A program made the translations under genes and the position numbers. Shown piece by piece: positions 8,248 through 45,661 of a stretch of DNA of 64,000 nucleotides. The stretch comes from Nitrospirota bacterium. Lineage in GTDB: Bacteria > Nitrospinota_A > UBA7883 > JACRGQ01. Positions within the stretch are counted from its first letter, which is position 1. Each line of letters begins with the position of its first letter. The stretch covers positions 7,480-71,479 of the forward strand of contig JAJRYD010000005.1 of NCBI GenBank assembly GCA_024275955.1, read 5' to 3'. Below the pieces are notes generated by a model that had not been told where the DNA came from, searched no databases, and saw only the letters and a program-made list of their open reading frames with translations.

Positions 8248-8377
8248 GGGGCCGTTGCCGAATGAGACAAACTTGATTTTGCTACAAATTGCCAATCTCT
8301 AAAGCCTCTGTTTTTACGAAGTTAGAAAATAAACTTTTCTTTAAAACGCTTAAAAACTCTTTTGGAAACAGTCCCCC
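8248..8377 (+). repeat. MITE/REP-like intergenic repeat, copy 1 of 6 (~130 bp, terminal inverted repeats)
   Basis: GGGGCCGTTGCCGAATGAGACAAACTTGATTTTGCTACAAATTGCCAATCTCTAAAGCCTCTG...AAAACTCTTTTGGAAACAGTCCCC. Near-identical to copies at 22197, 27155, 28504, 42832 and 45533. The ends are inverted repeats (GGGGC(T/C)GTTGCC / GGCAACAGCCCC-like). Confidence 0.85.
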
Positions 8378-8635
8378 GATGGAGAAGGTTCTTCCTGTTG
8401 CCGGCAAGCTTGGGGGGGTCTGCCCTACCAAAAGCGCAAAGAAACATAAAACAGGCTTCAAAAATGGCGTGGCCAACCCTCTCTACAACTCAAGGATGCT
8501 AAGGCCGAAAAAAAGCGAAAATAGGCTTTACAAACAGTGAAACATTCCGCACTAAGGAAAAGCCAAGCATAAAAACCCAGCGCAACAAACCTCTATCGAC
8601 TGCGTAGGCTCACCAGCAAAACGAACGGATAACCG

Positions 8636-8824
8636 CTATCTTGCCACGCCGACCTTTTTCCTGCCCCTCTTCTTTTTGACAGGTTTCGCAGGTTCAATAT
8701 TCATACACAAATCGCATTTGTGACCTATCTCCCTACCGCACATAAGGCATGTATAGGAGTCGCTCGCAAACGTTAAAATCCCGCCGCAGTGATAGCATCT
8801 CTCTTGGCTAGTATTATCGCTCAT
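8636..8824 (-). CDS. small zinc-ribbon protein with basic C-terminal tail
   Basis: 62 aa. CYHCGG...CLMCG...CDLC cysteine pairs and a C-terminal KKKRGRKKVGVAR tail. Short isolated gene, so real but uncertain. Confidence 0.4.
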   Translation of the reverse strand: MSDNTSQERCYHCGGILTFASDSYTCLMCGREIGHKCDLCMNIEPAKPVKKKRGRKKVGVAR

Positions 8825-9050
8825 TTAGGACCTCCAAAGAATATGTCTGGTTTTTTGCACTCTCAAAAGCCAACTGCACAAAATTATCATAATAATTTTC
8901 TGGTAAGCTAGCTTAATAGAGATGAAAAATCAACAATATTCTGTGATTTATAGAGACAAAAGAGACAAAAATGTCCATGAATAAGTAAAACTCATTATTT
9001 TATATAGGTTTAACATAGTTGCAGGTTTTTACTTATAACAGAAAACTTAC

Positions 9051-9914
9051 TCAACAACAGCCGGAATAGCTATCATTTTCAATAGCATACTCTGAATTTT
9101 CGGGAAAGGTTCTCTGTAAATATTTTACCATACTCCCTGCTTTTTTATTATTTCCCAAGCGTCTGTTCAGCTTATACGCCTCAAAAATATCGGCTTCTCC
9201 CAAAAGCCCCTCATTAAACATCGCATTAAGCTCGACCGACGCAAAGATATCCCGCTCTGTTTTTTTGACCTGCCCGTCTTTAGAAAAATAGGCCCAATAA
9301 GAGGTATCGGCAAACCTAAAATACTCCCCACCGTCACGCTTAAGCGCTTTGAGCATAGTATCGCGGTAAAGCTCTTCATTAAATCTAGCTTTCGCTACGA
9401 GAGCTTTGTTGAAATCGAAATAAAAAGAGGCGACAATACCAGCCTTGCCTAAAAACGAAACATCGTTTGAAAGCGGTTTTAACGAGAAAGTCTTCACGCT
9501 AAAGGCGGCCGCTAAAATGAGCATAAGAATCACTCCAGCTTTTTTTCTGTTGCCGTCTGAAAGCTTGAGACCTTTAGCGCGGCTCCAGCCAGCTAGATTA
9601 GAGAGACCAGCACCAAACCTACCCTTTAGGAGCGATAGAATAATAACCAGCAAGATAAGATAAAACAAAACAAGCGGCACCGCCAGCATGGCCGGAACTG
9701 TTCCAAAAAATTCCCCTACTCCATAATAAAGCTCAGATACAGTAGAGGGAAAGGACGGCGGCCTGAAATGCCCTGGAGTATATTTGATGCCTTTAAAAAA
9801 CAGCGGTACCACGGCGTTGAAAGCAAAATTAAAAAGCCTCTCGAATATGAGCAACAGTAAAAATAATATGCCAAAACTTTTATAATCAGAAATATTCTTA
9901 AACGGTTTTCTCAT
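9051..9914 (-). CDS. hypothetical polytopic membrane protein, last gene of the polysaccharide operon
   Basis: 287 aa with several hydrophobic helices. Lies 17 nt downstream of the GT26/GT-C fusion gene. No recognisable motif. Confidence 0.5.
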   Translation of the reverse strand: MRKPFKNISDYKSFGILFLLLLIFERLFNFAFNAVVPLFFKGIKYTPGHFRPPSFPSTVSELYYGVGEFFGTVPAMLAVPLVLFYLILLVIILSLLKGRFGAGLSNLAGWSRAKGLKLSDGNRKKAGVILMLILAAAFSVKTFSLKPLSNDVSFLGKAGIVASFYFDFNKALVAKARFNEELYRDTMLKALKRDGGEYFRFADTSYWAYFSKDGQVKKTERDIFASVELNAMFNEGLLGEADIFEAYKLNRRLGNNKKAGSMVKYLQRTFPENSEYAIENDSYSGCC

Positions 9915-9931
9915 CTATCCGCCATACCTAC

Positions 9932-11992
9932 TCATGCGTAGTAGATCGGCAAAAGATAGCCGAACACCGAAATAAAGTTTAAAAGAAGGAAGAAAAGCAC
10001 GCCAAAGCCTTCCGCGTCCTCTATTTTCCAAAAACTGTTAAGGCTTCGCAAGCTGTACACCACAAGCATTGAAGCTGGAGCTATGGCGTAAAAGAGGTAC
10101 CGCCCGGAAGCTCTATGTATATAGTTCTCCGTAGAAAAAAAGAGAAAAAGGACTATAAATACCGTAAAAATACAGAAGATAGAAAAGAGTATCGAGCGAA
10201 AATCGGCTTCGCTGTCACCGTTCCTTTTCCAGTCACGCTTTAACCCTCCCAGCAGACCGAAACAAACAGCTACGGTAAATGCAAACAGTAAAAGGTAAAG
10301 CCCAAAGCTCATCTTATGAACCATCTGCCCCAGCGTAAACCACGAAGTTACAAAAACAGTACCAACAGCCCGCATCCATTCGGAAAGCGGGATGCCTGCC
10401 CAGTCGCCGGGCGAAGAAAGAAAGTAGCCGGCAGATATCCCAACCCTATCGGCAACCTTTATAACGGCAAGCGGTAAAAAAAATTCCAGCAAAAGCAAAC
10501 TGGCAAAAAGAAACAGAAATAAAATGCCGAGCTTTTTAAAAAGTTTCGCCTTGCCGTTACCGTAAACTGCCACGGCAAAGCCAACCGCCACCCAGCTGAG
10601 AAGAATTACCCCATACTGCTTGGTTATTACCGCGGCGCAAGATAGAAAAAGCAACAGCAACATCTCCTCGAGAGAAACACCTCGTTTCTTCACCAGCATC
10701 GTTATCAGATAAAAGGTTATCGTAAAAAGCAGAATCAAAAGAACATCGGAATTTACCATCACCCCCATATACGAAAACTGCGGATGCAGGCCAGCTATCA
10801 AAAGAGAGGCTGTCGCCAGCCATTCCCGATAAGGCCCCTTGAAGATATTATCGCCGGCAAGGTAGATAAAAAGAAATGTGAGCATGGTAAAAACTACCGA
10901 CACCATTCTTGAAAGCAACAGCGAGCTTTCGATATCGACAGTTTTAAAAAGCTTTAATGGAAGCGATGCCAAAAAATAGTAGAGCGGAGGCCTTGAGGGG
11001 GAAAAACTTTCGCTATGCTGTTTGAGGGCGGTTTCATTAAAAAACTTAGCCCCTAGCTTTGGCTTCTTCATTTCGGCCTTTTCCCAAAAGCCTGTGGCAT
11101 TAAGCGATTTTATTATCTCGGCTTGATTAGAGTTGCCGTCGCCGCGCCCCGCCTTTACCATCACATAATCGAAATGGTTAGGCTCGTCGTTGCCCATCCA
11201 TGGAGGGGTTATAAAAGCAAAAAGAAGCAGTTTTACAAAAAGAAAAAGAAAGACCGGAAGTAAAATCCTCTCGGTAAATAGCTTTTGTAAAAAGAGGCTA
11301 TTGCCGACAAGATACCGTTTCCACATTCTGCCAGGTTCCTGCAAAAACCTGTAAAACCATTCCAGCCCAAGCTTTTGTAAAAACATCGGCGCTCTTTTGG
11401 CTTTTCCGGCCAGCACGTCAAAACTGCCTCCAACGCCCATAACAACCGAAACGCCAAGCCTATCTATATTAGCGTCGGTAAAGTTTTCCTTTTTCGGCGA
11501 ACTCATGCCGATAAAAAGAATGTCGGCAGAGGAACCGCTTATCGCCTCCACCACTTCCGCTTCGCTTTGGTAATAGCCGTCTTTTGCCCCAGCCACCTTT
11601 ATGCCGGGAAAAAGCTCCTTTACCTTCTCTACAGTTTTGCCCAGAACCTCAAGCGTAGCGCCGAGAAAGAAAAAGGAAAAACCTTTCTCGCTCCCTTCGC
11701 GTAAAAGCTCCATCATAAGGTCGATACCGGCAACCCTTTCTGGGATATCTACCCCAAGATACCGCCCCCCCCAGACTACCGCCTGCCCGTCGGCAAAACA
11801 AAAATCGGAGTTAGCAACAGAGTTGCGGAGCTTTTCGTCTTTTTCCATCGCCGCTATTTTTCCGGCGTTAAGAAATGAAACAGAGGTAACCCGTCTCTTC
11901 GTTACCGCGTCGAGCAGTGCCGATACCGCCTCCTGCATAACAAGCGTATCGACACGGCATCCAAGAAACTCTTCGCTTTTTCTATCTGCCAT
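9932..11992 (-). CDS. fusion of a WecG/TagA-type glycosyltransferase (GT26) and a GT-C-like polytopic membrane domain
   Basis: N-terminal ~240 aa carry the GT26 signature (FADGQAVVWGGRYLG...FFFLGAT...GMSSPKKE...WFYRFLQEP). The C-terminal ~440 aa form a multi-TM domain with PPWMGNDEPNHFDYV and VNSD motifs, paralogous to the ORF at 49292..50722. The start is taken at the internal Met (MADRK...) so that it abuts the asnB stop. Confidence 0.7.
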   Translation of the reverse strand: MADRKSEEFLGCRVDTLVMQEAVSALLDAVTKRRVTSVSFLNAGKIAAMEKDEKLRNSVANSDFCFADGQAVVWGGRYLGVDIPERVAGIDLMMELLREGSEKGFSFFFLGATLEVLGKTVEKVKELFPGIKVAGAKDGYYQSEAEVVEAISGSSADILFIGMSSPKKENFTDANIDRLGVSVVMGVGGSFDVLAGKAKRAPMFLQKLGLEWFYRFLQEPGRMWKRYLVGNSLFLQKLFTERILLPVFLFLFVKLLLFAFITPPWMGNDEPNHFDYVMVKAGRGDGNSNQAEIIKSLNATGFWEKAEMKKPKLGAKFFNETALKQHSESFSPSRPPLYYFLASLPLKLFKTVDIESSLLLSRMVSVVFTMLTFLFIYLAGDNIFKGPYREWLATASLLIAGLHPQFSYMGVMVNSDVLLILLFTITFYLITMLVKKRGVSLEEMLLLLFLSCAAVITKQYGVILLSWVAVGFAVAVYGNGKAKLFKKLGILFLFLFASLLLLEFFLPLAVIKVADRVGISAGYFLSSPGDWAGIPLSEWMRAVGTVFVTSWFTLGQMVHKMSFGLYLLLFAFTVAVCFGLLGGLKRDWKRNGDSEADFRSILFSIFCIFTVFIVLFLFFSTENYIHRASGRYLFYAIAPASMLVVYSLRSLNSFWKIEDAEGFGVLFFLLLNFISVFGYLLPIYYA

Positions 11993-11994
11993 TT

Positions 11995-13824
11995 TTAAAC
12001 AGTTACCCCAAACCTCTTGGCCCAAAGCTCTAGCGATATAAGCATAAACAGATGTCTGGAATAATCGTCTCTCCCTTGCCTGTGCTTTTTAACCATCGCT
12101 TCAACGGCGCCGTCTTTAAAAATATTTCTGGTAAGCGCTCCCTTATCGCAGACTATTTCGACAAAATCTTTTGAAAGCTCGCTTCTAAACCAATCGCCGG
12201 CAGGAGTCTCAAACCCTAGTTTTTTACGGTTTATCACCTCTGCCGGAACCTTTCGCTTCGCCATCTCCCTAAAAAAAACCTTTCCATTAAAACCTCTAAC
12301 CTTCTTATCGGAAGAAAGCTGTTCCACGAAACAGGCAAAATTGATATCGAGATACGGGACGCGCACTTCGACGGAGTGAGCCATAGAAACCTTATCGGTA
12401 TAAAGCAGAAGGTCGTCCGGTAGCGATGTCCTCATCTCCACCCAAAGCATTTTGGAAAGCGAGTCGCGCCCCTTTATATCCGATGCGTAGTATTCAATCG
12501 CCGACATATCGTCAGGAAAAGCGTCAGCGAGAATTCCATCGCGCATATAACTGTTGAACACGGAAAAGGTTTTAAGAAAACGGGCAGTGTCGTCTCTCTC
12601 GCCCAAAGCGTAAAAAGCTCTCTTCAAGCCGGAAAAACCTTTTACAGAGCTGGCCAGCATCCCAAGCAGTCGAGAGCCGAAGAGAGGCCTTAAAGCGCCT
12701 GAAAGCTTTTCCGCCCTATGCCGAAAATAACCGCCAAACAGTTCGTCCACCCCTTGCCCAGAAAGAACAACCTTATGACTTTTGCCGATTTCCCTGCAAA
12801 GAAGATAAAGCGGAACGGATGAACTAGTCGCCACCGGCTCTTCCATATGCCAAACGACATCTTCAAGAGCCGATAGAAAATCTAGATGGTCTATCTCTAT
12901 CTTTTCGTGGTTGATGCCTAAAAGCTTTGCCGTATCGGCGGCATATTTCAGCTCGTCAAACGAGTGGTCTCCCTTAAAGCCGACGGTAAAGGCGGTAAGC
13001 GAACCGCCATACCTCTTTGCCGCCAGCGTTGCCAGCAAAGTGGAATCGAGTCCTCCGCTTAGAAGGATTCCGACAGGCACGTCCGATACAAGCTGACGGG
13101 ATACCGCCGCATCCAACAGCTTTTCGGCATCGGATACAGTTCCGGCATCAGCCCCAGAGTTGTCGCCGATAAAGTACCGTTTCTCTTCCAGCTCGCTCCC
13201 TTTTAAGATGAGGTAATGCCCGGGCCTTAGTTTTTTAATCTTCTTAAAAAGCGTGCTTGGCGCTGGCGAGTAGCGGTAGGTGAGCATTGTGTTCAAGCTT
13301 TCGACATCAAATTCTTTTAGCTTTTGGTCTACGCCTAGTATCGCTTTCATTTCGGAGGCGAAAAGAAGCCTGCCGTTGCCGATGGAGTAGTAGATAGGTT
13401 TTACCCCGTAATGGTCGCGCGCCATGAAAAGCTTTTTCTCCGCTCTGTCCCATACCGCGAACGCGAATATGCCGTTAAAACGGCTGAGACAATCTGCCCC
13501 CCATCTGGCATACGAGGCGAGCAGAACCTCGGTATCAGAGGAGGTTTTAAATGGGTAGCCGCCAAGCTCTTTTTTGAGTTCGCGGTAGTTATAAAGCTCT
13601 CCGTTATAGGTAACAACATACCGCCCGTCTGCCGATTCCATCGGCTGGCTTCCTCCGTTGATATCTATAATCGCCAGCCTCTTATGGGCAAGAGCTACGC
13701 CTTTTTCCAGCCATATAGCTTCGCCGTCCGGCCCTCGGTGCGACTGCAAGGCGGACATAGCCTCAAGCTTCGCCTTTTGCACCGGCTCACCGTCAAAGTT
13801 TACCCAGCCGGCTATGCCGCACAT
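11995..13824 (-). CDS. asnB: asparagine synthetase B-family glutamine amidotransferase
   Basis: Ntn-hydrolase start MCGIAG (Cys2 nucleophile). PP-loop SGGLDS. Start chosen at the internal Met, giving a TGATG overlap with the upstream gene's stop at 13824. Confidence 0.85.
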   Translation of the reverse strand: MCGIAGWVNFDGEPVQKAKLEAMSALQSHRGPDGEAIWLEKGVALAHKRLAIIDINGGSQPMESADGRYVVTYNGELYNYRELKKELGGYPFKTSSDTEVLLASYARWGADCLSRFNGIFAFAVWDRAEKKLFMARDHYGVKPIYYSIGNGRLLFASEMKAILGVDQKLKEFDVESLNTMLTYRYSPAPSTLFKKIKKLRPGHYLILKGSELEEKRYFIGDNSGADAGTVSDAEKLLDAAVSRQLVSDVPVGILLSGGLDSTLLATLAAKRYGGSLTAFTVGFKGDHSFDELKYAADTAKLLGINHEKIEIDHLDFLSALEDVVWHMEEPVATSSSVPLYLLCREIGKSHKVVLSGQGVDELFGGYFRHRAEKLSGALRPLFGSRLLGMLASSVKGFSGLKRAFYALGERDDTARFLKTFSVFNSYMRDGILADAFPDDMSAIEYYASDIKGRDSLSKMLWVEMRTSLPDDLLLYTDKVSMAHSVEVRVPYLDINFACFVEQLSSDKKVRGFNGKVFFREMAKRKVPAEVINRKKLGFETPAGDWFRSELSKDFVEIVCDKGALTRNIFKDGAVEAMVKKHRQGRDDYSRHLFMLISLELWAKRFGVTV

Positions 13825-15032
13825 CAGCTGTTCCCTTCCAGCTTCATTTTTGCAAGCCCGACATTCGCAAGAGCTATAACCATCGGTACTGTCGCCCACC
13901 TGCCGTAGTTCATACGCGACAGGCCAAAGCTATACCTCCGGTGATAGTAATAGCTTTTGCTGGCATCGTACATCTCATCCTTAACCTTCTTAAAGACCTC
14001 TTCGGCAATTCCGAGGCATCTGCCAAGCTTACCGCTTGAAACAGAAAGAAGGTTTATAGCTTCGGCCGTGCTTCTTGTATCTATAGATATGCCAAGAGGT
14101 AGGTGGCTCTTCTTGAAATGATTGACGGTGTGGTCTTTATTTACAAACTCCGCGATAAAACTGTCAAGGCCGGCAACGAACGCGCCAGAAGCATCGTTAT
14201 CTTCTACAAAGCCAGAGTATTCGAGAAGATTTTCAAGAACGAAAGCCGAATGAAAGCAGTCTATAAAATTGTCCTTATCTTTTACGCTCCCTTTTTCGAA
14301 ATAGAACCAGCTACCGTCCTTGTTTTGCTGTGCCGTTACGAATTTCATAATCTTTAAAGAGCGCTCGATATAATCATCCCGCCCGAAAAAACTGCCCAGC
14401 TTTATAAGGAGCAACGCCGCGTATGAATTTGCGTTTATTACATATCTTTCGTCATCTTCGGCGTATCGCACCTTGCTACTGCCGTCAGGCAGATCAACCA
14501 GACCTGTGTCGTTAAATACAAACTCCCCCGCGTCCCTTAAAACCTCTCTCTCTCTTTGCGGCATTTTAGAGCCTTCATACGCTTCGAGAATATAGGTAAC
14601 AAGATACGCCGTGTGCGGCACGCAAGGGGTAAAGGCCGGAACCAGCCGATTGGTATACCAATTAAAATTATGCCCAAGCCCTCTTCCGCTCGACGACTTT
14701 CCAAGTTTTTTCAGCATATGCTCCGTAAGCATAAGACGGTCGGCCTCAAAGCTTTCGTCAGCCGTAAGCTGTCGGTAGGCAAGCATCGCCTTGAGGAAGG
14801 ATGGCAACGTCTCAAGCGGTATATCCGGCTTCAGGCCTATTCTAAAAAGTTTTGGGAAAAGAACCTCCATAACATAAACCACGCCGACAATCGGAGTGGT
14901 AAAGAGGTTTCTGGTTTTCCGCAAAAATATGCCTATTCCCCTGCCCCAGAAATCGTAATGGTCGTAAGACCTATAGCCCTCCTTTTGCATCTGCCAAAGG
15001 AGGGCTTTCATATGAGCCGTTACTTCATTCAC
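13824..15032 (-). CDS. hypothetical protein, possibly an (alpha/alpha)-toroid-like enzyme of polysaccharide modification
   Basis: 402 aa. No signal peptide and no strong motif. Translationally coupled to both neighbours (wzx-like upstream, asnB downstream). Confidence 0.5.
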   Translation of the reverse strand: MNEVTAHMKALLWQMQKEGYRSYDHYDFWGRGIGIFLRKTRNLFTTPIVGVVYVMEVLFPKLFRIGLKPDIPLETLPSFLKAMLAYRQLTADESFEADRLMLTEHMLKKLGKSSSGRGLGHNFNWYTNRLVPAFTPCVPHTAYLVTYILEAYEGSKMPQREREVLRDAGEFVFNDTGLVDLPDGSSKVRYAEDDERYVINANSYAALLLIKLGSFFGRDDYIERSLKIMKFVTAQQNKDGSWFYFEKGSVKDKDNFIDCFHSAFVLENLLEYSGFVEDNDASGAFVAGLDSFIAEFVNKDHTVNHFKKSHLPLGISIDTRSTAEAINLLSVSSGKLGRCLGIAEEVFKKVKDEMYDASKSYYYHRRYSFGLSRMNYGRWATVPMVIALANVGLAKMKLEGNS

Positions 15033-16276
15033 GCGGTTCTCTCCCTAAACATCACAGCGACAAATCTAACTACAGCCACAGTCATAAAAAGGGTCATCTG
15101 AAACATTATCAATTTTTCCAGCGAATCCGAAAAATAAAAAATCCCGGGTAGCTGAAGAGCGGTAACCGCCAGTGCCAGCAGAAGAAACTTCCGGCCGCCG
15201 CTGGCAAGGCTGTAATTGAACTCCATTAAAAGAAAAGAGACCGCCCACACAGCTACGCAGTAGTAGGGAAGTAGGCTGGAGACAGCTTTGTCATCAACCC
15301 TAAAAAGCAGACGCATTATATCATCGGACCAAAAATAGGAAAAAAGCGTAACCACGGCACCTACGCCGAACAGCATAAACGAAGCTCTCTTAAAAAGCTC
15401 GATAGAGTTGGCGCTGTTTAAAATTTTACCCCGTACCGCGGCGGGAAAGAGAGCCGCAGATACGACCAGCGCCGTAACAAAAATTGTTTTGCCTATCGTG
15501 GCGAAAGCGCTATATATGCCGGACTCTTCTGGAGAGAAAAGCAAGCGTACCAATATAATATCGACATTGATAAAAAACAGCGGAAAGAAACCGGCGATGA
15601 CAGCTTTGATGTAAAAGCTGAGCATCTCGTGCCTGCCGACATTCGGCCTTTCAGGCTCGACATCTTTTTGATGAGAACTAATAGCGATATGCATAATGGC
15701 GATTGAAACAATTACAGAAAGAAAAAGCGCGGAAATAGCTTTACCGACTGTAATACCGATAGCTATAAAGATAGCGGCCAAAGCAAGCCTAAGAAGACCA
15801 GAGATAGAAAGACCGATCGCTAGAATGCCGAATTTTTCCATCCCCCTTACGAACCCCAGCGGAACTGCCTGCAAAAAGTAGGAGCCTATTAATGTTCCTG
15901 TTATTAAAATCACGCCAAAGCTGTCGATATTGAGGCTCTCTTTCCAGAGAACCGAAGAACCGGCAACCAGAAGTACCGAAAGAAAGGCACAGAGCAATGC
16001 AAGCGACCACGAAAGAGAGTAAAAACCCCACACCTTTCCGGGAAGTTGAAGAGCTAGAAACTGTGCCGTATATTTAGCGTAGACGAGTATCAACGCCCCT
16101 GTAAAAACCGAAAAGATAAGCTGTATGGAAAGAAGCGCGTTCAACGCGCCAAAATCGCCCATTCCCATCGAACGGCCCATCATCAAAAGAAAAATGAAAG
16201 CGGAAGCACTGTTTATAAAAGTGGCGGCAAAGACTGTGGCAGAATTTTTTGTAAGCTCTTTTTTGCTCATAAGCAA
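15029..16276 (-). CDS. Wzx-like polysaccharide/oligosaccharide flippase (MOP superfamily)
   Basis: 415 aa, about 12 predicted TM helices. N-terminus KNSATVFAATFINSASAFIFLLMMGRSMGMGDFGALNA resembles polysaccharide biosynthesis proteins. Confidence 0.6.
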   Translation of the reverse strand: MLMSKKELTKNSATVFAATFINSASAFIFLLMMGRSMGMGDFGALNALLSIQLIFSVFTGALILVYAKYTAQFLALQLPGKVWGFYSLSWSLALLCAFLSVLLVAGSSVLWKESLNIDSFGVILITGTLIGSYFLQAVPLGFVRGMEKFGILAIGLSISGLLRLALAAIFIAIGITVGKAISALFLSVIVSIAIMHIAISSHQKDVEPERPNVGRHEMLSFYIKAVIAGFFPLFFINVDIILVRLLFSPEESGIYSAFATIGKTIFVTALVVSAALFPAAVRGKILNSANSIELFKRASFMLFGVGAVVTLFSYFWSDDIMRLLFRVDDKAVSSLLPYYCVAVWAVSFLLMEFNYSLASGGRKFLLLALAVTALQLPGIFYFSDSLEKLIMFQMTLFMTVAVVRFVAVMFRERTA

Positions 16277-16315
16277 AATGTTAAGGCGTAGGCCGTGCAG
16301 GAATTGATTTAGACA

Positions 16316-18712: not shown

Positions 18713-19019
18713 TTGGGCTATTTTACGCTAAAATTTCGGGTAAAGGTTTGAATTTTTAACTTTTTTTTGCCGTTTCCGGCGATAACTAGAGGCGATAGTC
18801 CGGTCATTTGTAATTCTCAACTACCACTTCCACCTGAATCATTCTTATAAACTGTTTGAATAAACTCTATCTGAACTAGAGAGTGTCCTTTTGCCTTTAA
18901 ACGATAAAAATCCAACTTCACTGAATGACACTTCCCAGCCATTTGGAAATGCCTCTAGTTGCTCTTTAAATTGACCCCACGGTTATTGACTCCGCCATAA
19001 TCTGCCTCCCAAAAATCTG

Positions 19020-19784: not shown

Positions 19785-19786
19785 CC

Positions 19787-29406: not shown

Positions 29407-31113
29407 TTAGTTCAATATCCTTTTTAGTACCTGTTTTCTGATATCGAGGTAGGCATGGTTGTTCTCCGTAAGGTCCAAAAAGGACTGGTACGCTTCTTTT
29501 GCTTTCTTTCTTTTTCCAAGAACGTCGGACGAGTAGCCGATATTGAGGTAGACCTCCGGCATTTTGGGTGAAATTGTTTTGAGGTAATAAAGAGTTTCAA
29601 GAGCTTTATCGTGATCGTTTTTCTGCTGGGCCACTATAGCCCGCTGGAGCCATAAGCCGGACCGCCTACCGTCTATCGCCAACCCGAGCTCAAGATATTT
29701 TTCGGATAGTTCGAGATTACCCGAGCCAAGATACGCCGTTCCTATAAGGAAGTATGCTTCCCATCCCACATTGTCAGAATCGAAAACAGGCATAAGCGTG
29801 TTCACAGCTTCTTTGTAGGAGCCTACACGCACCTGATGTCTTCCGCGGTTAATAAGCACGGCAGGGTCTTCCGGCATCCCTCCGCTTTGCTCTGCTAAGG
29901 TTACCCCTTTTGCCCTAACTTCGCCTTTAGCCGTAGCCATAGTTTTAGCAACTGGGTTCATCCGTGCCAGAAGTTTTCTTTTGCTGTTGCCTAAAATGGA
30001 GTTGCGCCCAAGTATGTTACCTATAACATTTTTCTCATCTCTTAGCAGATCAGGCGGCGGCGCGGAAAGAAGGTAATAGGAGTCTTCGCCATTGTGCTTC
30101 CCTTCGACTATAAATGCCGCGTGACCGCCTCCAATATTGAAAATCGTTTTGGTAACTTTTGATAGGCTGTCGCTTATCGCTATTACAAGCGCCACCCTGT
30201 TATCGGGAAGTGTCTTAAAGCCGGTTTCCCATACAGCGAGGGCAGATTTTATTCCATTATCGTTCAGTTCGCTCCAGCCGTTTGTCATCCAGCTTTCCTC
30301 TGCCCACGTTTTATTTTTCAAAGGAGCGATGTTTGCCGTAAGCTCTTTTGCCTTTACCGCCTTTTGCTCTTCTATAACTTTCGCTTGGGCAACTGCTGTT
30401 TCTCTTGCTATACGGTTTTCTTTTGCCACTCTGTTAGCTTCGGCAACCGCTATTTCTCTGGCAAGCGTAGCCTCTTTGGCTATCTCTTTCGCTTGGGCAA
30501 CTGCTGTTTCTCTTGCTTTAAGGTTTTGAGCCGCAATCCTGTTAGACTCGGCAATCTGCTTTGCTTCGGCCAGCCCAGCTTCTCTCGCCTTTCTAGTCTT
30601 CTCCTCTATCAGCCTAACCTCCGCAAGTGCCGCTTCTTTCGCGCTTCTAGCTTCGTCCATTATCCGTTGCGCTTCGGCCAGCCCAGCTTCTTTCGCCTTT
30701 TGATTTTCCTCGGCAAGCCGTCTGCTATTCGCCATCTCTTCACCTGCGGTAGAGCCTGCCGTATCGGAGAGAGACTTAACCGGAGCTATGGCGGCAGGCG
30801 CTTTGACCGCTTTTGAGGCAGGCTCCAAACCGTCAACCATCGGAACACTTTTGGCAGAGGAAGCGCCGCCCTTGCCGGTTATAAACTTGGTATAGCCGTA
30901 ATAAAGCCCCGATACAGCACCGACCGCTACGATAATAAGAGAAATAAAAGCTATTACATATTTAGCCAAGCCGGGCGAGTCATCAGCCTGTTGGGCTATG
31001 TAGTGATTATTTTTCCAAGGCGAGTTGATATCGGCTTTGGCTCCGTCTGCTTTATCTGTATCTCTTTTTTGATCTTCTTCAAGGCGCTTGAGCGTCTGCT
31101 CGATAATACTCAT
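29407..31113 (-). CDS. MshN-like pilus biogenesis protein (N-terminal TM, tandem coiled-coil repeats, C-terminal TPR domain)
   Basis: 568 aa. TM helix at residues ~50-72. Five to six tandem ~22-aa repeats (KEAGLAEAQRI... / ARETAVAQAKEIAKE...). C-terminal TPR-like region. Directly downstream of the ExeA-like ATPase, matching the MshM-MshN pairing. Confidence 0.6.
   Translation of the reverse strand: MSIIEQTLKRLEEDQKRDTDKADGAKADINSPWKNNHYIAQQADDSPGLAKYVIAFISLIIVAVGAVSGLYYGYTKFITGKGGASSAKSVPMVDGLEPASKAVKAPAAIAPVKSLSDTAGSTAGEEMANSRRLAEENQKAKEAGLAEAQRIMDEARSAKEAALAEVRLIEEKTRKAREAGLAEAKQIAESNRIAAQNLKARETAVAQAKEIAKEATLAREIAVAEANRVAKENRIARETAVAQAKVIEEQKAVKAKELTANIAPLKNKTWAEESWMTNGWSELNDNGIKSALAVWETGFKTLPDNRVALVIAISDSLSKVTKTIFNIGGGHAAFIVEGKHNGEDSYYLLSAPPPDLLRDEKNVIGNILGRNSILGNSKRKLLARMNPVAKTMATAKGEVRAKGVTLAEQSGGMPEDPAVLINRGRHQVRVGSYKEAVNTLMPVFDSDNVGWEAYFLIGTAYLGSGNLELSEKYLELGLAIDGRRSGLWLQRAIVAQQKNDHDKALETLYYLKTISPKMPEVYLNIGYSSDVLGKRKKAKEAYQSFLDLTENNHAYLDIRKQVLKRILN
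30350..30720. repeat. imperfect tandem DNA repeats (~66 bp units) encoding the coiled-coil repeats of the MshN-like protein
   Basis: Recurring CTTTCGCTTGGGCAACTGCTGTTTCTCTTGC and GCTTCGGCCAGCCCAGCTTCT(C/T)TCGCCTTT blocks, visible directly in the sequence. Confidence 0.6.
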
Positions 31114-31963: not shown

Positions 31964-31990
31964 CCGGAGTAAGCACTCCAGAGAATCTTT

Positions 31991-33721: not shown

Positions 33722-33808
33722 TATCAGATGCCCCCCAACTGGCGAAGATACTCAATACCGGTACCACCACGCCTACTATACAATGCAAACCCCACTCTAC
33801 AAACCCAG

Positions 33809-34285: not shown

Positions 34286-34291
34286 ACGCGC

Positions 34292-36513: not shown

Positions 36514-36519
36514 TACTTT

Positions 36520-37758: not shown

Positions 37759-37858
37759 ACGCCCCCCACATAGTAAAAAAGCAGGCCACCGACTTATCGC
37801 ACGGAGACCCGCCTGTTTCAAAGCAAACAAATTTTATAAAAACCTAATTCCAGCCCGA

Positions 37859-38383: not shown

Positions 38384-38493
38384 ATCTTTCTCCTTTTCAA
38401 TTTTGCTCCCGTAACCCACCCGAAAACATAGTCAACGTAAAAAACACTCTCCATACTACAGCAAGTAAATTATACACTATTGGGCCATATTTT

Positions 38494-39717
38494 CTACCCT
38501 ACACTGCTCATTAGCGTCATGATAGGCATAAATATCGCCAACGCGGTAAAGCCTACTATACCGATCATGGTAATCATTATTGCCGGCTCCACTATGCCGA
38601 ATACCGTCTTAATAGTTCTTGGAATAACTTCGTCGTAATAGGACGAAATGCTCTCAAGCGGCGCGCCGAGGTCGCCCGACTGCTCGCCGACAGAAAGCAT
38701 CATAAGCTCCATAGAGTTAAAGATATCGTGTTTTCCCATGCTTTCATAAAGCGTCATGCCGCCTTCTATGTCGGCTTTTGCCTCTCTGAGAGCTTTTTCC
38801 ATTACAAGGTTACCGACAAGCTCCTGACACAGCTCCAAATTCTGCAATACCGGAATGCCGGCTTTGAACAGCGCCGCAAAGTTGGTGGCGAATTTCGATA
38901 CAACGAACATTTTATTAAGCTTTCCGAAAACCGGCAGTTTGAGCTTCATGCTGTCCCACCAAAACGAAAAGCCTTGTGATTTCTTTTTCGCCGCGCCGAT
39001 AATAAAAGGTATGACAGCGACAAACATAAGCGAAACCACGCCGTAGCTTTTGGCAAAATCGCTCACTGCCATAACTATGATAGTAGGCATCGGAAGCTCC
39101 ACATCTAGGCTTACAAGCAGAGTAACGAATTTGGGAACCACAAAGGTAAAAAGCAGGCCTATAAACATCACGATAACGATCAACACTGTTACCGGATATA
39201 TCGTCGCCTGTTTTACGTCGGATTTCATGCGCAATACCCATTCCATATAGGCGATAATATCGGCAAATGTTTCAGGCAGACGGCCGCTCTCTTCGCCGGC
39301 CCTTATCATGTTGGCTGTGTTAGAGTCGAAAGCTTTTGGGTGAGCGCTAAAAGAATCTGCAAGGGTTTCGCCGGATTCGACACCATTACAGACTGCGTCT
39401 AGAACTTTTCTAAAGTAAGGGTTGTCAGAGCCTTTCTGCATACCGCGCAAGCCCTCAAGCATAGGAACACCGGCATTCAAGAGCCCTCTAAACTGAATAA
39501 AAAAGTCGATAACCTCTCTTGGCTTTACCGATTCCAGAAACGTGAGCTTAAATTCTTTGCCGCCGACCGAAACAACATCTTCGAGTGAAGAGCTTTCTAT
39601 AAGAACCTGCCCCATATCGGCAAGCTGTTCTTCCAGCAAAGATTCGTCAACAGCTACCATACTGCCGGTTATAGACCTGCCGGTATTGTCTAAAGCTCTG
39701 TAATTATATTCAGGCAT
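38494..39717 (-). CDS. type IV pilus inner-membrane platform protein (PilC/GspF family; MshG-like)
   Basis: 407 aa. Two GspF repeats and three TM helices. Confidence 0.85.
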   Translation of the reverse strand: MPEYNYRALDNTGRSITGSMVAVDESLLEEQLADMGQVLIESSSLEDVVSVGGKEFKLTFLESVKPREVIDFFIQFRGLLNAGVPMLEGLRGMQKGSDNPYFRKVLDAVCNGVESGETLADSFSAHPKAFDSNTANMIRAGEESGRLPETFADIIAYMEWVLRMKSDVKQATIYPVTVLIVIVMFIGLLFTFVVPKFVTLLVSLDVELPMPTIIVMAVSDFAKSYGVVSLMFVAVIPFIIGAAKKKSQGFSFWWDSMKLKLPVFGKLNKMFVVSKFATNFAALFKAGIPVLQNLELCQELVGNLVMEKALREAKADIEGGMTLYESMGKHDIFNSMELMMLSVGEQSGDLGAPLESISSYYDEVIPRTIKTVFGIVEPAIMITMIGIVGFTALAIFMPIMTLMSSVG

Positions 39718-39742
39718 AAATAAATAGAACCATCTTAAAAGC

Positions 39743-41416
39743 CTACATCACCACTTTAAGCACTTCATCGACGATGGTACGGCCTTCCAATATTTTCCTA
39801 AGTCCGTCTTCCGCCATAGTGAGCATGCCGTTGGCCCTGCCTACATTCTCTAGTTCTTTTATTCCGTAACTATCTACGATAGCTTTATGAAAGCTGTCGT
39901 CTATATGCATTATCTCGTACAGCCCAAGCCTGCCTGTAAGCCCTATGTTGCTACAGCTGGTACAGCCGGCTCCTTCGTAAACCTTAAAAGCGGTGCCTTC
40001 TGGAATTTTGCCCAAAACTTTAAGCTGGCCGATATCCGGGTTTTTAACCTCTTGCTTGCAATTTTCGCATATTCTCCTAACAAGCCTTTGGCCGACGACC
40101 GCCCTTAGCGATGCCGAAAGGAGGTAAGGCTTTATGCCCATATCGACAAGCCTCGGGATAGCGCCTGCCGCGTTGTTGGTATGCAGGGTAGAGAGAACCA
40201 GATGGCCCGTAAGGGCAGACCTTATCGCAAGCTCGGCCGTTTCGGAGTCGCGAATCTCTCCTACCATTACTATATCCGGGTCTTGCCTTAGTATCGAGCG
40301 AAGCCCTGTGGGGAAATCCATCCCTACATCTGGGTGAACCTGCGTCTGCCTGATAACCTGAAGGTTAAATTCTATAGGGTCTTCAAGGGTGAGGATAGAC
40401 CTATCCATCGTGTTGAGGATGCTAAGCGCCGAGTAGAGCGTGCTTGTTTTGCCGGAACCTGTAGGGCCGGTAACAAGAAGCAGTCCGTTAGGGTTTTTCA
40501 AAAGCTCGTTCATGCGGTCTTCGTCGTCTTTCATAAAGCCGAGCGCGTCAAACTTAAGATCGACATTCAGCTTGTCTAAAATTCTTATTACGATAGCCTC
40601 GCCGTTAGATGTCGGCATCGTCGATATTCTCAGGTCGATAACCCTCGAACCTATCTTGAACGACGCCCTGCCGTCCTGCGACAGACGCTTTTCCGTAATA
40701 TCGAGGTCGCTTATTATTTTTATTCTTGCGGTAAGCGCGGCAGAAAGCGACTTTGGGATAAGCAGGTCTTGGCTTAAAACGCCGTCCACCCTTGTACGGA
40801 CTCTAAGTATTCGTTCTTCGGGTTCTATATGTATATCTGTTGCCCGCTTTTTTATAGAGGCAGATATTATCTGGTCGACAAGGGTTATCATCGGCATTAT
40901 GTCGCCGGTAGCGGCATCTAGGTTGTCTGCCAGCCCTTTTTCTATTATATGCTCGATAGTCTTTTCTATCGTGCTTTTGTGGGCGAAATGCCTTTCTATA
41001 GCCTCCATTATGTCGGTTTTGGGCGCGGCGACCACCTCGATAGTAAGCCCTGTTTCCTGCCCTACCGCGTCGATCGCGTTTACATCGAGGGCATCCGCCA
41101 TAGCGACGGTAAGAGTATGCCCATCTTTTTTAAGCGGAAGCACCTGATGCTGTTTGGCGGTGTCGTACACGATAAGCTTTACCGCATCTATCTCTATAGG
41201 GTATGTGCTTAGGTCTACAAGTTCGGAGAGCGTTTCCTGAGCAAGAAACTTGGCGATAATATCCTGCGAGAGGATCTTAAGCTCCTCCAGAGCATCGCCT
41301 AAGTATATCCCTTTTCGCTTATGCTCGTTAAGAGCAAGCTTTAGCTGGGCATCGTTTATAAGCCCGGCATCAAGAAGCCTTTGCCCAAGCGGTTTTACCG
41401 CTGTTTTTTCCGCCAA
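39743..41416 (-). CDS. type IV pilus assembly ATPase MshE-type with N-terminal c-di-GMP-binding MshEN domain
   Basis: 557 aa. N-terminus LGQRLLDAGLINDAQLKLALNEHKRKGIYLGDALEEL matches the MshEN tandem motif. Walker A GPTGSGKTST. Tetracysteine motif CENC...CTSC. Confidence 0.9.
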   Translation of the reverse strand: MAEKTAVKPLGQRLLDAGLINDAQLKLALNEHKRKGIYLGDALEELKILSQDIIAKFLAQETLSELVDLSTYPIEIDAVKLIVYDTAKQHQVLPLKKDGHTLTVAMADALDVNAIDAVGQETGLTIEVVAAPKTDIMEAIERHFAHKSTIEKTIEHIIEKGLADNLDAATGDIMPMITLVDQIISASIKKRATDIHIEPEERILRVRTRVDGVLSQDLLIPKSLSAALTARIKIISDLDITEKRLSQDGRASFKIGSRVIDLRISTMPTSNGEAIVIRILDKLNVDLKFDALGFMKDDEDRMNELLKNPNGLLLVTGPTGSGKTSTLYSALSILNTMDRSILTLEDPIEFNLQVIRQTQVHPDVGMDFPTGLRSILRQDPDIVMVGEIRDSETAELAIRSALTGHLVLSTLHTNNAAGAIPRLVDMGIKPYLLSASLRAVVGQRLVRRICENCKQEVKNPDIGQLKVLGKIPEGTAFKVYEGAGCTSCSNIGLTGRLGLYEIMHIDDSFHKAIVDSYGIKELENVGRANGMLTMAEDGLRKILEGRTIVDEVLKVVM

Positions 41417-41552
41417 TATATACTGCCCCCAAAGAAACCAAAGATGCGAGGAGCGTCAACGCCGCCCCAGCCTTTAAAAGAAAATCTCCGGCTGGCGGCC
41501 TGTTAAAACGGGCCACCAGCCGATAAGAATAAAAGCTTCCTAAACCAAACAG

Positions 41553-42266
41553 CTAGTTTATAAGAGCGGAAGCGAGGTAAATGGTCATAGTCCCCTGATC
41601 ACTCACTCCGCCTTCTGTGCCGTCCCATTTCACTTTGCCTCTAATACCACTTCTGGCATTAACGGCACCAGCTCCGCTACCTGTTTTACCTCCGTCAATG
41701 ATATCTTCGATCCTCTCCCAATCGGTCTCTGCTACGGCGGCGTAAGTGATAAAAACAACAATCTTGTTATTTGTCGAGCTTATCGTGCCAGTACTAGCAA
41801 ACGCGAAATCGTTAGTTGTAGCTGTAACCGCGGTGGTAGTACCAAGCGCAGATATTATCTGCCCGACAGAGCCTATAGAGGTGTGTTTGATAGCATCGAG
41901 GTAAGGGCCCTCCCATCTTGCCCACAACCCGGTAGTAACATTAGAAGCTGTACCTTTTATCCCTATATTCATCAGCTGAAAACCTAAATCGTTAGTAGAT
42001 GTGGATGTAGCTGTGGTGGTTACCGCCAGAGCCGCCACAGGGACGCCGCTTGCGCCAAGTACGTTCAATGTGCCTATATCGGCATACCAGTCGTTAACAG
42101 CGGCGGTGTAGGTGCGGATATCGGAAGCGAGTGCCGATGCTTTGGAATCTGCAATAGTATCGAACACTTTAGGCGCTACCAGTGCCGCAAGCACGCTTAT
42201 AACGGCAAGAACGCCGATAATTTCTATCATAGTAAAACCAGCTTTACTTTTAAGACTCTTGAACAT
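41553..42266 (-). CDS. type IV major pilin (MshA-like)
   Basis: 237 aa. Prepilin leader MFKSLKSKAG/FTMIEIIGVLAVISVLAALVAP. Thr/Ala/Gly-rich body. Confidence 0.8.
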   Translation of the reverse strand: MFKSLKSKAGFTMIEIIGVLAVISVLAALVAPKVFDTIADSKASALASDIRTYTAAVNDWYADIGTLNVLGASGVPVAALAVTTTATSTSTNDLGFQLMNIGIKGTASNVTTGLWARWEGPYLDAIKHTSIGSVGQIISALGTTTAVTATTNDFAFASTGTISSTNNKIVVFITYAAVAETDWERIEDIIDGGKTGSGAGAVNARSGIRGKVKWDGTEGGVSDQGTMTIYLASALIN

Positions 42267-42330
42267 ATCTATTTAACCCCCAAAAAAAATTAAACTGTTT
42301 AAACAAAATTAATAATACAGGAAATCTACG

Positions 42331-42666
42331 CTATCTCTTTTCCTTCGTGTAAACTCCAACAAAAAACAGACCGACTGCTATGCCGAAAAAGTAAGGCCGC
42401 AACAAAACCGTAACCAAGCGGAACATCTCAAGCTTGTCCGGCACCGCCGCCTCTGCGCCACTATTGTAACAGAAGTCAAAAACTTTGCCAGCATAACTTA
42501 TCGCCCGATTATTTGTGGCAGATTCCCCTCTTTTTGCAAAGCGGGAGGAGAGTGGTTCTTGCTTGGTAACCATTCCGAAGTTCGACAGGCTCACGCCGCC
42601 CTCCCTTCTTATAAAGGGAAAGGTTTCTACGGCAATTCCCGTAAGTAGCCGCTCCTGATAAAGCAT
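42331..42666 (-). CDS. small hypothetical protein with C-terminal TM helix
   Basis: 111 aa. Lies 64 bp upstream of the pilin gene. No motif, so possibly non-coding. Confidence 0.3.
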   Translation of the reverse strand: MLYQERLLTGIAVETFPFIRREGGVSLSNFGMVTKQEPLSSRFAKRGESATNNRAISYAGKVFDFCYNSGAEAAVPDKLEMFRLVTVLLRPYFFGIAVGLFFVGVYTKEKR

Positions 42667-42831
42667 GTTTTTAGCGTGGCAAGGTTTTGTAACTGACCTT
42701 CCTGTTCAGTTTTCTGCCGATAAATCTTCGTAAAACCGCCAGCCAAAAAGAAAAAACAAGAAAGCCCTTCAGTAGCTTTCTCATATTATGCCCCGCACCG
42801 CAGAGAACGGCGTTCATCTTGTCGCCCTCTT

Positions 42832-42961
42832 TGGGGCTGTTGCCGAATGGCATAAATTCGATTTTCCCACAAATCGCCAATCGCTAAAACCTCTGTTTTT
42901 AAGAAGTTAGAAAATGAGCTTTTCTTTAAAATGCTCAAAAAACTCTTTTGGAAACAGTCCC
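42832..42961 (+). repeat. MITE/REP-like intergenic repeat, copy 5
   Basis: GGGGCTGTTGCCGAATGGCATAAATTCGATTTTCCCACAAATCGCCAATCGCTAAAACCTC...CTCTTTTGGAAACAGTCCC. Confidence 0.85.
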
Positions 42962-43369
42962 ATAATCGTTTAAACAATAAACGGCTTTTTGTAGGAACGA
43001 CATAAGTAGCGTAGACATTCCTGTCTGCGATTGTCCCGCAGGGGCAACAGACTTGGCGGTGTCGCACTAAAATCGGATGAACAACATGTAAAAATGCCCG
43101 TTCCACCGCAAAACGAGCTTCCTAACTTTTTCAATAACCGCGAATTTCTACGAGCCGAAGTTAAAGCGCAAACCAAATCCCCTCATTTACCGCCTACGGT
43201 AGCTAAAGCGCCTACCCCTGTATTATCTAATTCCATCAATACTGCCTGAATCCGCAGACAAGAACCCCCGCTATTGATTGAAATTCCAAAAAAGGCAGGG
43301 AGCAAGTTGTCTGCGCTCTGCGTCTGCCGTCTGCGAGAACCGGCATAAGATACTTTGGAATCTCCCTTC

Positions 43370-44173
43370 TCATTTTGCGTAAAACTTTCCAAAGCTGTTA
43401 AGCTCTATCATCTGCATAATCTCCGCTTCGGTGATTCTCCGGCTATAGTCGCATTTTTTTATACCAACAAGCTGGTTCCACTTATACTCTATCCCCTCGT
43501 AGCTAAAAGCGGTCATACGACACTCTCTAACCTTCTTTTGGCCGGCAGACTTATATTCATAAACCGTTCTCGCTATATAATGCCCGTTTTGCGAGTCGCG
43601 CCAGACAATATCGGTGCTAATATGCTTAAACGATTTCGGGTCGCCTATACCTGTTTTGACTATCCCCTTAGAGGCATCGCGGAACTTTTGGTCAGGATGA
43701 AGAGTCGCGTAATCTATCACCTTTAGAACGGTAAATACGAGAAGAGAATAAAGTAGAATCCTTTTCCAGTTCAAGAGATAGAGAACCGAGAAAAGAAGCT
43801 TATCCCAGTTCCTTTTGCTGTCGGTCTCCTGCTGTTTTTTTTCTGGTTTTTTATTATCCGATGTTTCTTTAGGCTCTGGCTTGGCATTGCCGTCCAGATA
43901 AAAACTATCGCCGTAGATAAGCTGGCCGCAGTCGCACTTTAGTTCGTCGATATCCTGTCCGCAATCGCATCCGGCAAACTCGGCCTCTAACGAAAATGTG
44001 TCATTTTCCCCGCAGTTGGGGCATGCCAACGCCCCTTCTTCGCCGCACCCAAAACATTTATAAAAGACCGACCTGTTATACTCAACCGCCAAACTAACAC
44101 CCCGCCGGAAAAGAAAGAAAACTCCCACCGTCCACTTTTTATACCATGCCTTTGTAGCTGTATAAGAGCCCAA
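43370..44173 (-). CDS. hypothetical membrane protein with N-terminal Cys-rich zinc-ribbon region
   Basis: 267 aa. CFGCGEEGALACPNCG...CDCGQ...CDCGQ cysteine pairs, a TM helix (LLYSLLVFTVLKVI), then a ~130-aa C-terminal domain. Confidence 0.5.
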   Translation of the reverse strand: MGSYTATKAWYKKWTVGVFFLFRRGVSLAVEYNRSVFYKCFGCGEEGALACPNCGENDTFSLEAEFAGCDCGQDIDELKCDCGQLIYGDSFYLDGNAKPEPKETSDNKKPEKKQQETDSKRNWDKLLFSVLYLLNWKRILLYSLLVFTVLKVIDYATLHPDQKFRDASKGIVKTGIGDPKSFKHISTDIVWRDSQNGHYIARTVYEYKSAGQKKVRECRMTAFSYEGIEYKWNQLVGIKKCDYSRRITEAEIMQMIELNSFGKFYAK

Positions 44174-44281
44174 AATCCGGTTTTTCGGGTATTTGCGTTT
44201 TTATCAAGCTATAATCTCTGACATGAAACGTTGCCCAAAAACAGCCCTGCCTAGAAGAATAACAGGAAAACGATACAACGT

Positions 44282-45454
44282 ATGAGGCGTGAACGGTTCA
44301 AGGCTATATATAAAAACAGCCCTATACTTCTTGGCATCGGGCTTAAAAGCATGCGCGCTACAGTAAGGGGGATGTTCCGGCAGATAGGCTCTTCCGAAAT
44401 AGTGGAAGCCGAAACCGGCGAGAGCGTACTGACACTCCTAAACAAATTCTACAAGGAAAAAAGTTATTTCGTAATCCTCGACTGGGATATACCCGGAATG
44501 CCGGGGGTAGATGTGGCAAGAGAAATAAGGGGCAACAAACGGCTCGAAAACACCCCTCTCCTGCTGATGGCGGAAGACGCGGTGGCAGGGGATGTCGCTC
44601 TGCTTGGAGAGATAGGCGTGAACGGATGCGTCGTAAAGCCATTAATCTTTAGCCTTATGCAAAAAAAGTTCGAGGAGATTATCTACACAAGAGCCAACCC
44701 GCCGGAGCATGTGCGGATTATAAAAGAGGGTGAGGACCTTCAGGAAAAGAAAAATTACAAGCAAGCACTTAAGCTGTTTACCCAATCGCAGGATATAAAA
44801 AACTCGGCGCGTGTCAACGTGCTTATAGGAGAAAGCTACGAGAAGATGGAAGAGCATAAAGAAGCTCTTAAACACTACCAAATGGCAACCAAAATCAACC
44901 CGATGTACATCAAGGCGTATCAATACGCGGCTAGCCTTTATCTAAAGCTGAACGACGAGGAGAATGGGTTAATTTATCTGGGCAAAGCGGCCCAAATAAG
45001 CCCAAATAACCACGAAAGACAGGCTCTGCTTGGCAAGCTGTATATGGCAAAGGGAGATATAGTAAAAGCCGAGGAGGCTTTTTCCTTCGTCGTTAAAATA
45101 CAGCCGGAAAAAGGAAAGGAGATAGGCGAAAAGTTTCTGGAAGCTGGGCATTCGAGAACTGCGGAAAACTTTTTCAAAAAATCTATAGCCTTTGAAAGAA
45201 GATCTATACATACCTATAACCGTCTTGGGATAGCTCTAAGAAGGCAGGGCAAATGGCAAGAAGCGGTAGATATATACAAAAAAGCTCTGCTGATAAGCCA
45301 TAGGGATGAAGGACTCTATTTCAACATGGGCCGCTCGTTTATAGAGGGCGGCAGAACTTACGAAGCGAAAGAATCGTTCCACAGGGCGCTAAAACTAAAC
45401 CCAAAGATGGAAGAAGCAAGGGAAGAGCTGGCAAAGCTGGGAAAGAAAAAGTAA
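44282..45454 (+). CDS. receiver-TPR protein, paralog of 4949..6121, with a degenerate receiver acidic pocket
   Basis: 390 aa. VILDWDIPGMPG...KP receiver motifs, but the N-terminal DD pair is replaced by GI (ILLGIGLKSM). The TPR region aligns with the paralog (AAQISPNNHERQ / YNRLGIALRRQGKWQEAV). Confidence 0.75.
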   Translation: MRRERFKAIYKNSPILLGIGLKSMRATVRGMFRQIGSSEIVEAETGESVLTLLNKFYKEKSYFVILDWDIPGMPGVDVAREIRGNKRLENTPLLLMAEDAVAGDVALLGEIGVNGCVVKPLIFSLMQKKFEEIIYTRANPPEHVRIIKEGEDLQEKKNYKQALKLFTQSQDIKNSARVNVLIGESYEKMEEHKEALKHYQMATKINPMYIKAYQYAASLYLKLNDEENGLIYLGKAAQISPNNHERQALLGKLYMAKGDIVKAEEAFSFVVKIQPEKGKEIGEKFLEAGHSRTAENFFKKSIAFERRSIHTYNRLGIALRRQGKWQEAVDIYKKALLISHRDEGLYFNMGRSFIEGGRTYEAKESFHRALKLNPKMEEAREELAKLGKKK

Positions 45455-45532
45455 CTTTTCTCGAACCGGCCGATATTCCCGGCAGTAGCCGAAGCGTCCT
45501 AAAATATCGACGTATACCGTGATACCGGAAAT

Positions 45533-45661
45533 GGGGCTATTGCCGAATAAGACAATCTTGATTTTGCTACAAATCGACAATCTCTAAAACCTCTCTTTTA
45601 AAGAAGTTAGAAAATAAACTTTCTCCTAAAATACTCAAAAAACTCTTTTGGAAACAGTCCC
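45533..45661 (+). repeat. MITE/REP-like intergenic repeat, copy 6
   Basis: GGGGCTATTGCCGAATAAGACAATCTTGATTTTGCTACAAATCGACAATCTCTAAAACCTC...CTCTTTTGGAAACAGTCCC. Confidence 0.85.

Follow-up and report, generated by a model that had tools for sequence, protein, structure and literature searches.

The MITEs (miniature inverted-repeat transposable elements) derived from Tn3-family transposons, known as TIMEs, are the first point of comparison for the repeat family described here, which occurs in six copies within a 64,000-nucleotide stretch of contig JAJRYD010000005.1 (hereafter the window, meaning this whole stretch). Elements of the Tn3 family commonly have GGGGG tips and typically make duplications of 5 bp (PMC4337579). 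Published TIMEs are 209-288 bp long and carry 38-bp imperfect inverted repeats flanked by AT-rich direct repeats of 5 bp, sometimes 6 bp (PMC4133298, PMC13367494); their left and right ends agree at 29-30 of 38 positions, and they usually occur in one to four copies (PMC4133298). Like TIMEs, the element in the window is non-coding and has GGGG tips, imperfect terminal inverted repeats (TIRs) and AT-rich 5-bp duplications. Unlike TIMEs, which are usually found on plasmids, it is chromosomal, with six copies in 37 kb, and its host is an uncultured Nitrospinota-like lineage rather than a gammaproteobacterium. Its similarity to known Tn3-type repeats is also weak.

Other described families share its general form. 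Correia/NEMIS elements of Neisseria, RUP of Streptococcus pneumoniae, ERIC and the cyanobacterial Nezha elements are, like the present one, 100-200 bp long, bounded by TIRs, intergenic, co-transcribed with their neighbors and present in many diverged copies. Correia and RUP both duplicate TA, whereas the present element differs from them in its termini and its duplication and shares no sequence with them; nor did we find in it a promoter or binding site of the Correia type. REP, BIME and REPIN sequences and the elements derived from IS200/IS605 insertion sequences are likewise short, abundant and intergenic, and they can show a strand bias. Elements moved by REP-associated RAYT proteins or by IS200/IS605 transposases insert beside a fixed short motif and have neither target-site duplications (TSDs) nor TIRs, whereas the present element has both and has no fixed target motif.

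Six dispersed copies of a probable MITE

An earlier note on this DNA had listed six copies of a MITE- or REP-like element. When the six intervals are aligned with 20-nt flanks, all six copies fall on the plus strand within 1-2 nt of the positions given there, with lengths of 128-131 bp (Table 1). Similarity sets in sharply at GGGGC and ends at CCC, and the sequence outside these limits is unrelated between copies. A profile built from the six copies and run against the window (nhmmer --max, all filters off) returns exactly these six, with E-values of 1e-36 to 1e-41. The next match (54167-54047, minus strand, E 0.015, inside an open reading frame (ORF)) was considered as a candidate seventh copy and rejected, since its alignment shows no copy; the profile search thus finds no seventh copy within the 64-kb window. 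Motif counts in the window agree with this picture. The right-end 24-mer has five matches against 0.00 expected, and the 15-mer tip has 19 near-matches against 3.25 expected, 12 of which are element ends; neither motif reveals a solo end. An independent repeat finder recovered the same family and no other noteworthy dispersed repeat in the window.

The copies are dispersed over 37 kb and are 78-91% identical in pairwise comparison, somewhat lower than the range of about 85-95% first reported. The hundreds of copies per genome put forward in the earlier note are an extrapolation. Their G+C content is 32-38%, against 46.4% for the window, and sequence decay is distributed along the whole element. 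ORFs that overlap the copies are not conserved from one copy to another, which indicates that the element has no coding capacity and holds no transposase gene. Small ORFs near two copies (8289-8540, 8636-8824, 42970-43176 and 43031-43249) have no Pfam match.

The ends of the element are imperfect inverted repeats with the tip GGGGCTGTTGCC. Comparison of each left end with the reverse complement of the corresponding right end gives 8-12 matches over 12 positions and 11-17 over 19; the similarity is recognizable over about 19 bp and faint out to about 38 bp, where the two ends agree at 18-23 of 38 positions. The 12-bp terminal repeats of the earlier note, GGGGCTGTTGCC and GGCAACAGCCCC, are indeed perfect in copy 3 but only there; in each of the other copies, 8-10 of the 12 positions match. 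Five of the six left tips read GGGG, and that of copy 4 reads GAGG. On the right, copies 2 and 3 have the tip GGGG, whereas it is GGGA for copies 1, 5 and 6 and GGGT for copy 4. The conserved core proposed for the right end holds in part, with copy 4 departing from it and copy 2 differing by one base (AAATAG for AAACAG).

Evidence for transposition comes from the flanks. The 5-nt sequences on either side of copies 1-6 match at 4, 4, 5, 5, 1 and 2 positions, or 21 of 30 overall. Random pairs with the same spacing match at 7.4±2.4 positions, and no set of six among 40,000 drawn at random attained 21; the chance of a single perfect match over five positions is 0.001. Among the flanks of the six copies, duplication lengths of 2-4 and 6-10 nt give chance-level matching only. 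The flanking repeats are therefore target-site duplications of exactly 5 bp, perfect at two copies, retained at four of five positions at two more and lost at the remaining two. The element is short, is bounded by TIRs, carries TSDs of a fixed length and occurs in dispersed copies with unrelated flanks, which is the full set of structural features of a MITE.

Table 1. Copies of the probable MITE in the window (left flank / right flank; matches between the two 5-mers).
Feature	Position	Strand	Length (bp)	Flanking 5-mers	Matches	Remarks
Copy 1	8248..8375	+	128	CTGAT / CCGAT	4/5	36.7% GC
Copy 2	22197..22324	+	128	ATTGT / ATTAT	4/5	
Copy 3	27156..27285	+	130	ATTAG / ATTAG	5/5	best preserved; perfect 12-bp TIRs GGGGCTGTTGCC...GGCAACAGCCCC
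Copy 4	28502..28632	+	131	TTCTA / TTCTA	5/5	most decayed; termini GAGGCTG...CAGACCC
Copy 5	42833..42961	+	129	TCTTT / ATAAT		duplication not recognizable
Copy 6	45533..45661	+	129	GAAAT / TTAAA		duplication not recognizable

Taken together, these observations make it very probable that the element is a genuine MITE, that is, a non-autonomous DDE transposon that does not encode its own transposase, and the 5-bp duplications lend further support to the MITE reading put forward earlier. Two points weigh against it: copies 5 and 6 are without any duplication, and no autonomous parent with these ends emerged from pattern scans across collections of genomes, metagenomes and viruses, in which all matches were due to chance. 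Given the 5-bp duplications, each copy goes back to a transposition event of its own, by an enzyme whose cuts are staggered by 5 bp. Copies 3 and 4 in particular inserted independently, since each carries its own perfect duplication. The family is old, as its copies are only 78-91% identical and four of the six duplications have decayed or disappeared.

Pfam scans of about 55 ORFs, essentially all the plausible ones in the window, found no transposase, resolvase, integrase or Y1 transposase, and the element is thus non-autonomous within the window. In the mechanism we propose, a DDE-type transposase encoded elsewhere in the genome would bind both ends of the element and join them to target DNA whose strands had been cut 5 bp apart; repair of this stagger would leave a 5-bp direct repeat at the flanks. 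Mobilization would thus occur in trans, and copies survive only between genes, in spacers that tolerate an insertion. What the window itself shows of this scheme is a family of repeats, their inverted ends, the duplications and the independent insertion of each copy.

Parentage of the element

The likeliest parent, in our tentative judgment, is a Tn3-family transposon, which would make the element a very small relative of the TIMEs. We favor this parent because GGGG tips, combined with duplications of 5 bp and with target 5-mers rich in A and T, are the Tn3 signature. Of the TIME-type pattern, GGGG(G) tips and AT-rich 5-bp repeats (ATTAG, TTCTA, ATTGT/ATTAT and CTGAT/CCGAT) are found here, and we know of no family other than Tn3 that pairs a G-rich tip with a 5-bp duplication. 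Nevertheless, the link to Tn3 is suggestive rather than demonstrated.

We compared the twelve ends of the element in a fixed register with the eight ends of four published TIMEs (Table S2 of PMC13367494), a narrow reference set that consists of Tn3-group and Tn21-group elements from enterobacteria. In copy 3, the right end, GGGGCTGTTGCCAAAAGAGTTTTTTAAAGCATTTTAAG, is a 38-mer that runs from GGGG to TAAG, as in repeats of the Tn3/Tn21 type. It agrees with the left repeat of IMU at 23 of 38 positions and with the right repeat of TIME244 at 21 of 38, and the TAAAGCA...TAAG block stands at the same positions. Scored with a position matrix from which the GGGG tip was left out, this end gives P ~0.003, which is borderline once corrected for twelve tests.

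Several observations weigh against a Tn3 parent. The other 11 of the 12 ends, with P-values of 0.07-0.78, resemble the eight TIME repeats no better than random sequence does. The left and right ends of the element agree less well (18-23 of 38 positions) than those of published TIMEs (29-30 of 38), and its length of 129 bp is roughly half that of known TIMEs. Target immunity is known for many members of the Tn3 family. Finding six copies within 37 kb, with 1.2 kb separating two of them, is therefore unexpected for this family, and the number exceeds the usual one to four copies of a TIME. In addition, the GGGGCTG tip fits the termini of other insertion sequence (IS) families, as discussed below.

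One could also picture an unusually small (129-bp) Tn3-type MITE that was amplified to high density on a chromosome, in which case it would have escaped target immunity, and that was inserted or retained with a replication-linked polarity, giving the copies of one replichore a common strand. We regard this full combination as distinctly improbable. If it were true, the escape from immunity and the replication polarity would be properties undescribed for TIMEs.

It is quite possible, although we do not favor it, that the element is instead a MITE derived from an IS outside the Tn3 family, whether of the IS1 family, the IS1595 family (IS1016 group) or an undescribed family. The GGGGCTG tip fits the GGnnnTG / GGGgctg termini of IS1 and of the IS1016 group. 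With only about 19 bp, the clear inverted repeat resembles those typical of an IS more than those of Tn3, dense chromosomal copies are typical of IS-derived MITEs, and, as described above, 11 of the 12 ends show no significant similarity to Tn3-type repeats. However, IS1 and IS1595 elements produce duplications of 7-9 bp, whereas the signal here lies at exactly 5 bp. Matches between longer flanks of copies 1-6 stay at chance level, with 0, 1, 2, 2, 1 and 2 positions for 7 bp, 4, 3, 2, 2, 1 and 2 for 8 bp, and 3, 1, 2, 2, 4 and 1 for 9 bp. The pairing of a G-rich tip with a 5-bp duplication likewise speaks for Tn3 over any other family that we can name.

Further copies of the element were sought in several collections. 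Exact-pattern scans gave four chance matches in 185,579 species genomes, 11 in the JGI metagenomes, and three and 14 in two scans of IMG/VR, the 14 being mostly recurrent phage coding sequence. None of these loci fits the element profile, although the scans required an exact match to a degenerate 17-26-mer, which diverged relatives would escape. BLASTN of the element against 72,556 plasmids yielded only short, AT-rich chance matches, and a search of the literature on the terminal 12-mers and on MITEs in Nitrospin* found nothing relevant. In the nearest Nitrospinota metagenome-assembled genomes (63-68% amino-acid identity), the element is absent from the roughly 20 kb around the orthologue of the U32 peptidase gene that precedes copy 3.

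Orientation, RNA function and host recruitment

All six copies lie on the plus strand. The earlier note took this to suggest selection; the orientation itself is borne out, but with six copies only it has a two-sided probability of 2 x 0.5^6 = 0.031 of arising by chance. GC skew is below zero over nearly the whole window, the cumulative skew falls almost monotonically, and the minus strand carries most of the genes; a single replichore probably contains the window, the plus strand being the lagging one. Because all copies probably share one replichore, a bias linked to replication would agree with their orientation. The simplest explanation for the shared strand is nonetheless chance, or some weak local effect; a bias is unproven, and chance is most likely.

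We also considered whether an element derived from a transposon has since been recruited by its host, with its orientation under selection for a role as an RNA hairpin that affects the stability or termination of mRNA, a protein-binding site or a replication-polar sequence. Such recruitment would account for the placement of all six copies on one strand of what is probably one replichore. In addition, several copies are flanked on both sides by genes of one direction and must be transcribed along with these, in either orientation. In folding comparisons against shuffled sequence, copy 3 (z = -6.4) and copy 5 (z = -2.8) fold significantly better than the shuffles.

The remaining evidence makes recruitment unlikely, quite apart from the 0.03 probability of finding six of six by chance. 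Copies 3, 4 and 6 are sense and copies 1, 2 and 5 antisense to their co-directional neighbors, and an orientation-dependent RNA role is unlikely because the copies are divided three to three. Copies 2 (z = -0.3) and 4 (z = -0.1) fold like shuffled sequence, and copies 1 (-1.9) and 6 (-1.7) are marginal. The consensus fold of either strand consists essentially of end-to-end pairing, and compensatory changes are found at 0 of 29 and 1 of 36 predicted pairs in the consensus folds of the two strands. Folding the 130-nt unit thus reveals no conserved structure, and the RNA-level function suggested in the earlier note finds no support.

No Rfam 15 family reaches its gathering score in the element, and a tRNA is the sole passing match in the whole window; the permissive matches score 20-26 bits against thresholds of 60-140, and those to plant miRNA precursors and to Nitrosomonas psRNA6 are generic hairpin or AT-rich alignments. 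The one stretch scanned for promoters and terminators (27000-28800, with copies 3 and 4) lacks promoter-like sites, and its two terminator-like sites both fall outside the copies. No sigma-54 -24/-12 motif was seen by eye. The decay of the copies, as noted above, is element-wide.

The earlier suggestion of a REP-like sequence with a RAYT or IS200/IS605 TnpA partner, that is, a RAYT-mobilized element of the REP/REPIN type or a palindrome-associated one mobilized by TnpA, can be set aside almost entirely: it would account for an orientation bias toward the lagging strand, a one-strand orientation is what single-strand transposition yields, and the copies are intergenic, but the 5-bp TSDs and TIRs contradict it, the flanks differ at every copy with no common tetra- or pentanucleotide at the left end (CTGAT, ATTGT, ATTAG, TTCTA, TCTTT and GAAAT), the unit is 129 bp long rather than a 20-40-bp palindrome, and none of the window ORFs has a Y1 transposase (Y1_Tnp) domain in the Pfam scans. 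Integron attC sites were also considered and rejected, as the copies are scattered among core genes of either strand and have ends that do not fit RYYYAAC/GTTRRRY.

The element, then, very probably represents a new MITE family with clear evidence of transposition, in a lineage near Nitrospinota that has been seen only in metagenomes and whose mobile elements appear from our literature search to be undescribed. The family would be useful as a marker in the interpretation of assembly breaks, in strain typing, and in annotation, where copies can give rise to spurious ORFs and false starts such as the TTG at 22210 discussed below. If the link to Tn3 is true, TIME-type elements would extend well past Proteobacteria and plasmid-borne resistance contexts. 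The class of element is ordinary, and its significance is modest unless a genome-wide strand polarity proves real.

Gene neighborhood of the copies

The intergenic location reported earlier is upheld for all six copies, with gaps of 17-675 bp to the flanking ORFs. Copy 2 lies between a rhomboid gene, whose stop codon is at 22434, and a GDPD gene with a likely ATG at 22183, both on the minus strand. The copy ends 13 bp upstream of this ATG. An ORF that starts at the TTG at 22210 runs 14 bp into the copy, and this overlap vanishes if the ATG at 22183 is the real start; the TTG start is probably an artifact. Copy 2 probably lies antisense within a co-transcribed rhomboid-GDPD spacer, and its antisense transcription is required if the two genes form an operon.

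Copy 3 begins 49 bp past the stop codon of the U32 peptidase gene; 116 bp separate its end from an ion-channel gene, and copy 4 begins 17 bp past the stop codon of the latter. The two copies, in direct orientation, thus bracket a single gene of 360 aa (27402-28484; Ion_trans, Ion_trans_2) in a layout like that of a composite transposon. A similar arrangement is known from TIME-COMP, in which a direct-oriented pair can bracket a gene. The idea that this arrangement arose as a composite transposon of the two copies was rejected, given that their perfect duplications are separate and the outer flanks differ. The gene that follows the U32 peptidase differs in the nearest relatives.

Copy 1 is found in a 1.18-kb spacer between a histidine kinase gene (6192-7871) and an ORF of 287 aa (9051-9914), both on the minus strand. 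This spacer (7872-9050) is unusually long for the gene-dense window and contains no convincing ORF and no permissive Rfam match. Copy 5 lies between two minus-strand ORFs (42331-42666 and 43370-44173), and copy 6 between a gene for a response-regulator/TPR protein (44282-45454) and an ORF of 208 aa (45709-46335), both on the plus strand.

Content of the window and its source

By Pfam scans, the window is ordinary core chromosome. Its genes include hpf, rpoN, lptB/A/C, ftsK, birA and coaX, those for an asparagine synthase, glycosyltransferases, cytochrome b and many TPR proteins, and a type IV pilus cluster with a secretin, a PilB-like ATPase and a PilC-like protein. The U32 peptidase was the sole protein searched against 5.8 billion proteins, and its best non-self match is 68% identical. 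The nearest named relative by this protein is a Nitrospinota metagenome-assembled genome (GCA_029881495.1). The matches of this one protein point to a poorly sampled lineage near Nitrospinota as the source of the DNA.

Some further features of the window deserve mention. The sole RNA gene detected is a tRNA-Gln (anticodon CTG) at 48981-49054 on the minus strand. Tandem repeats of 54 nt and 108 nt at 30372-30711 and 31030-31079 lie inside a minus-strand TPR ORF of 568 aa (29407-31113) and may be coding repeats. Three pairs of ORFs, matched by Pfam domain make-up alone, share the same domains: the 390-aa response-regulator receiver plus TPR proteins at 4949-6121 (minus strand) and 44282-45454 (plus strand), the spermidine-synthase-like plus TPR proteins at 53090-55978 and 62908-63951, and the adjacent Vgb-lyase-like beta-propeller ORFs at 55975-57009 and 57006-58334.

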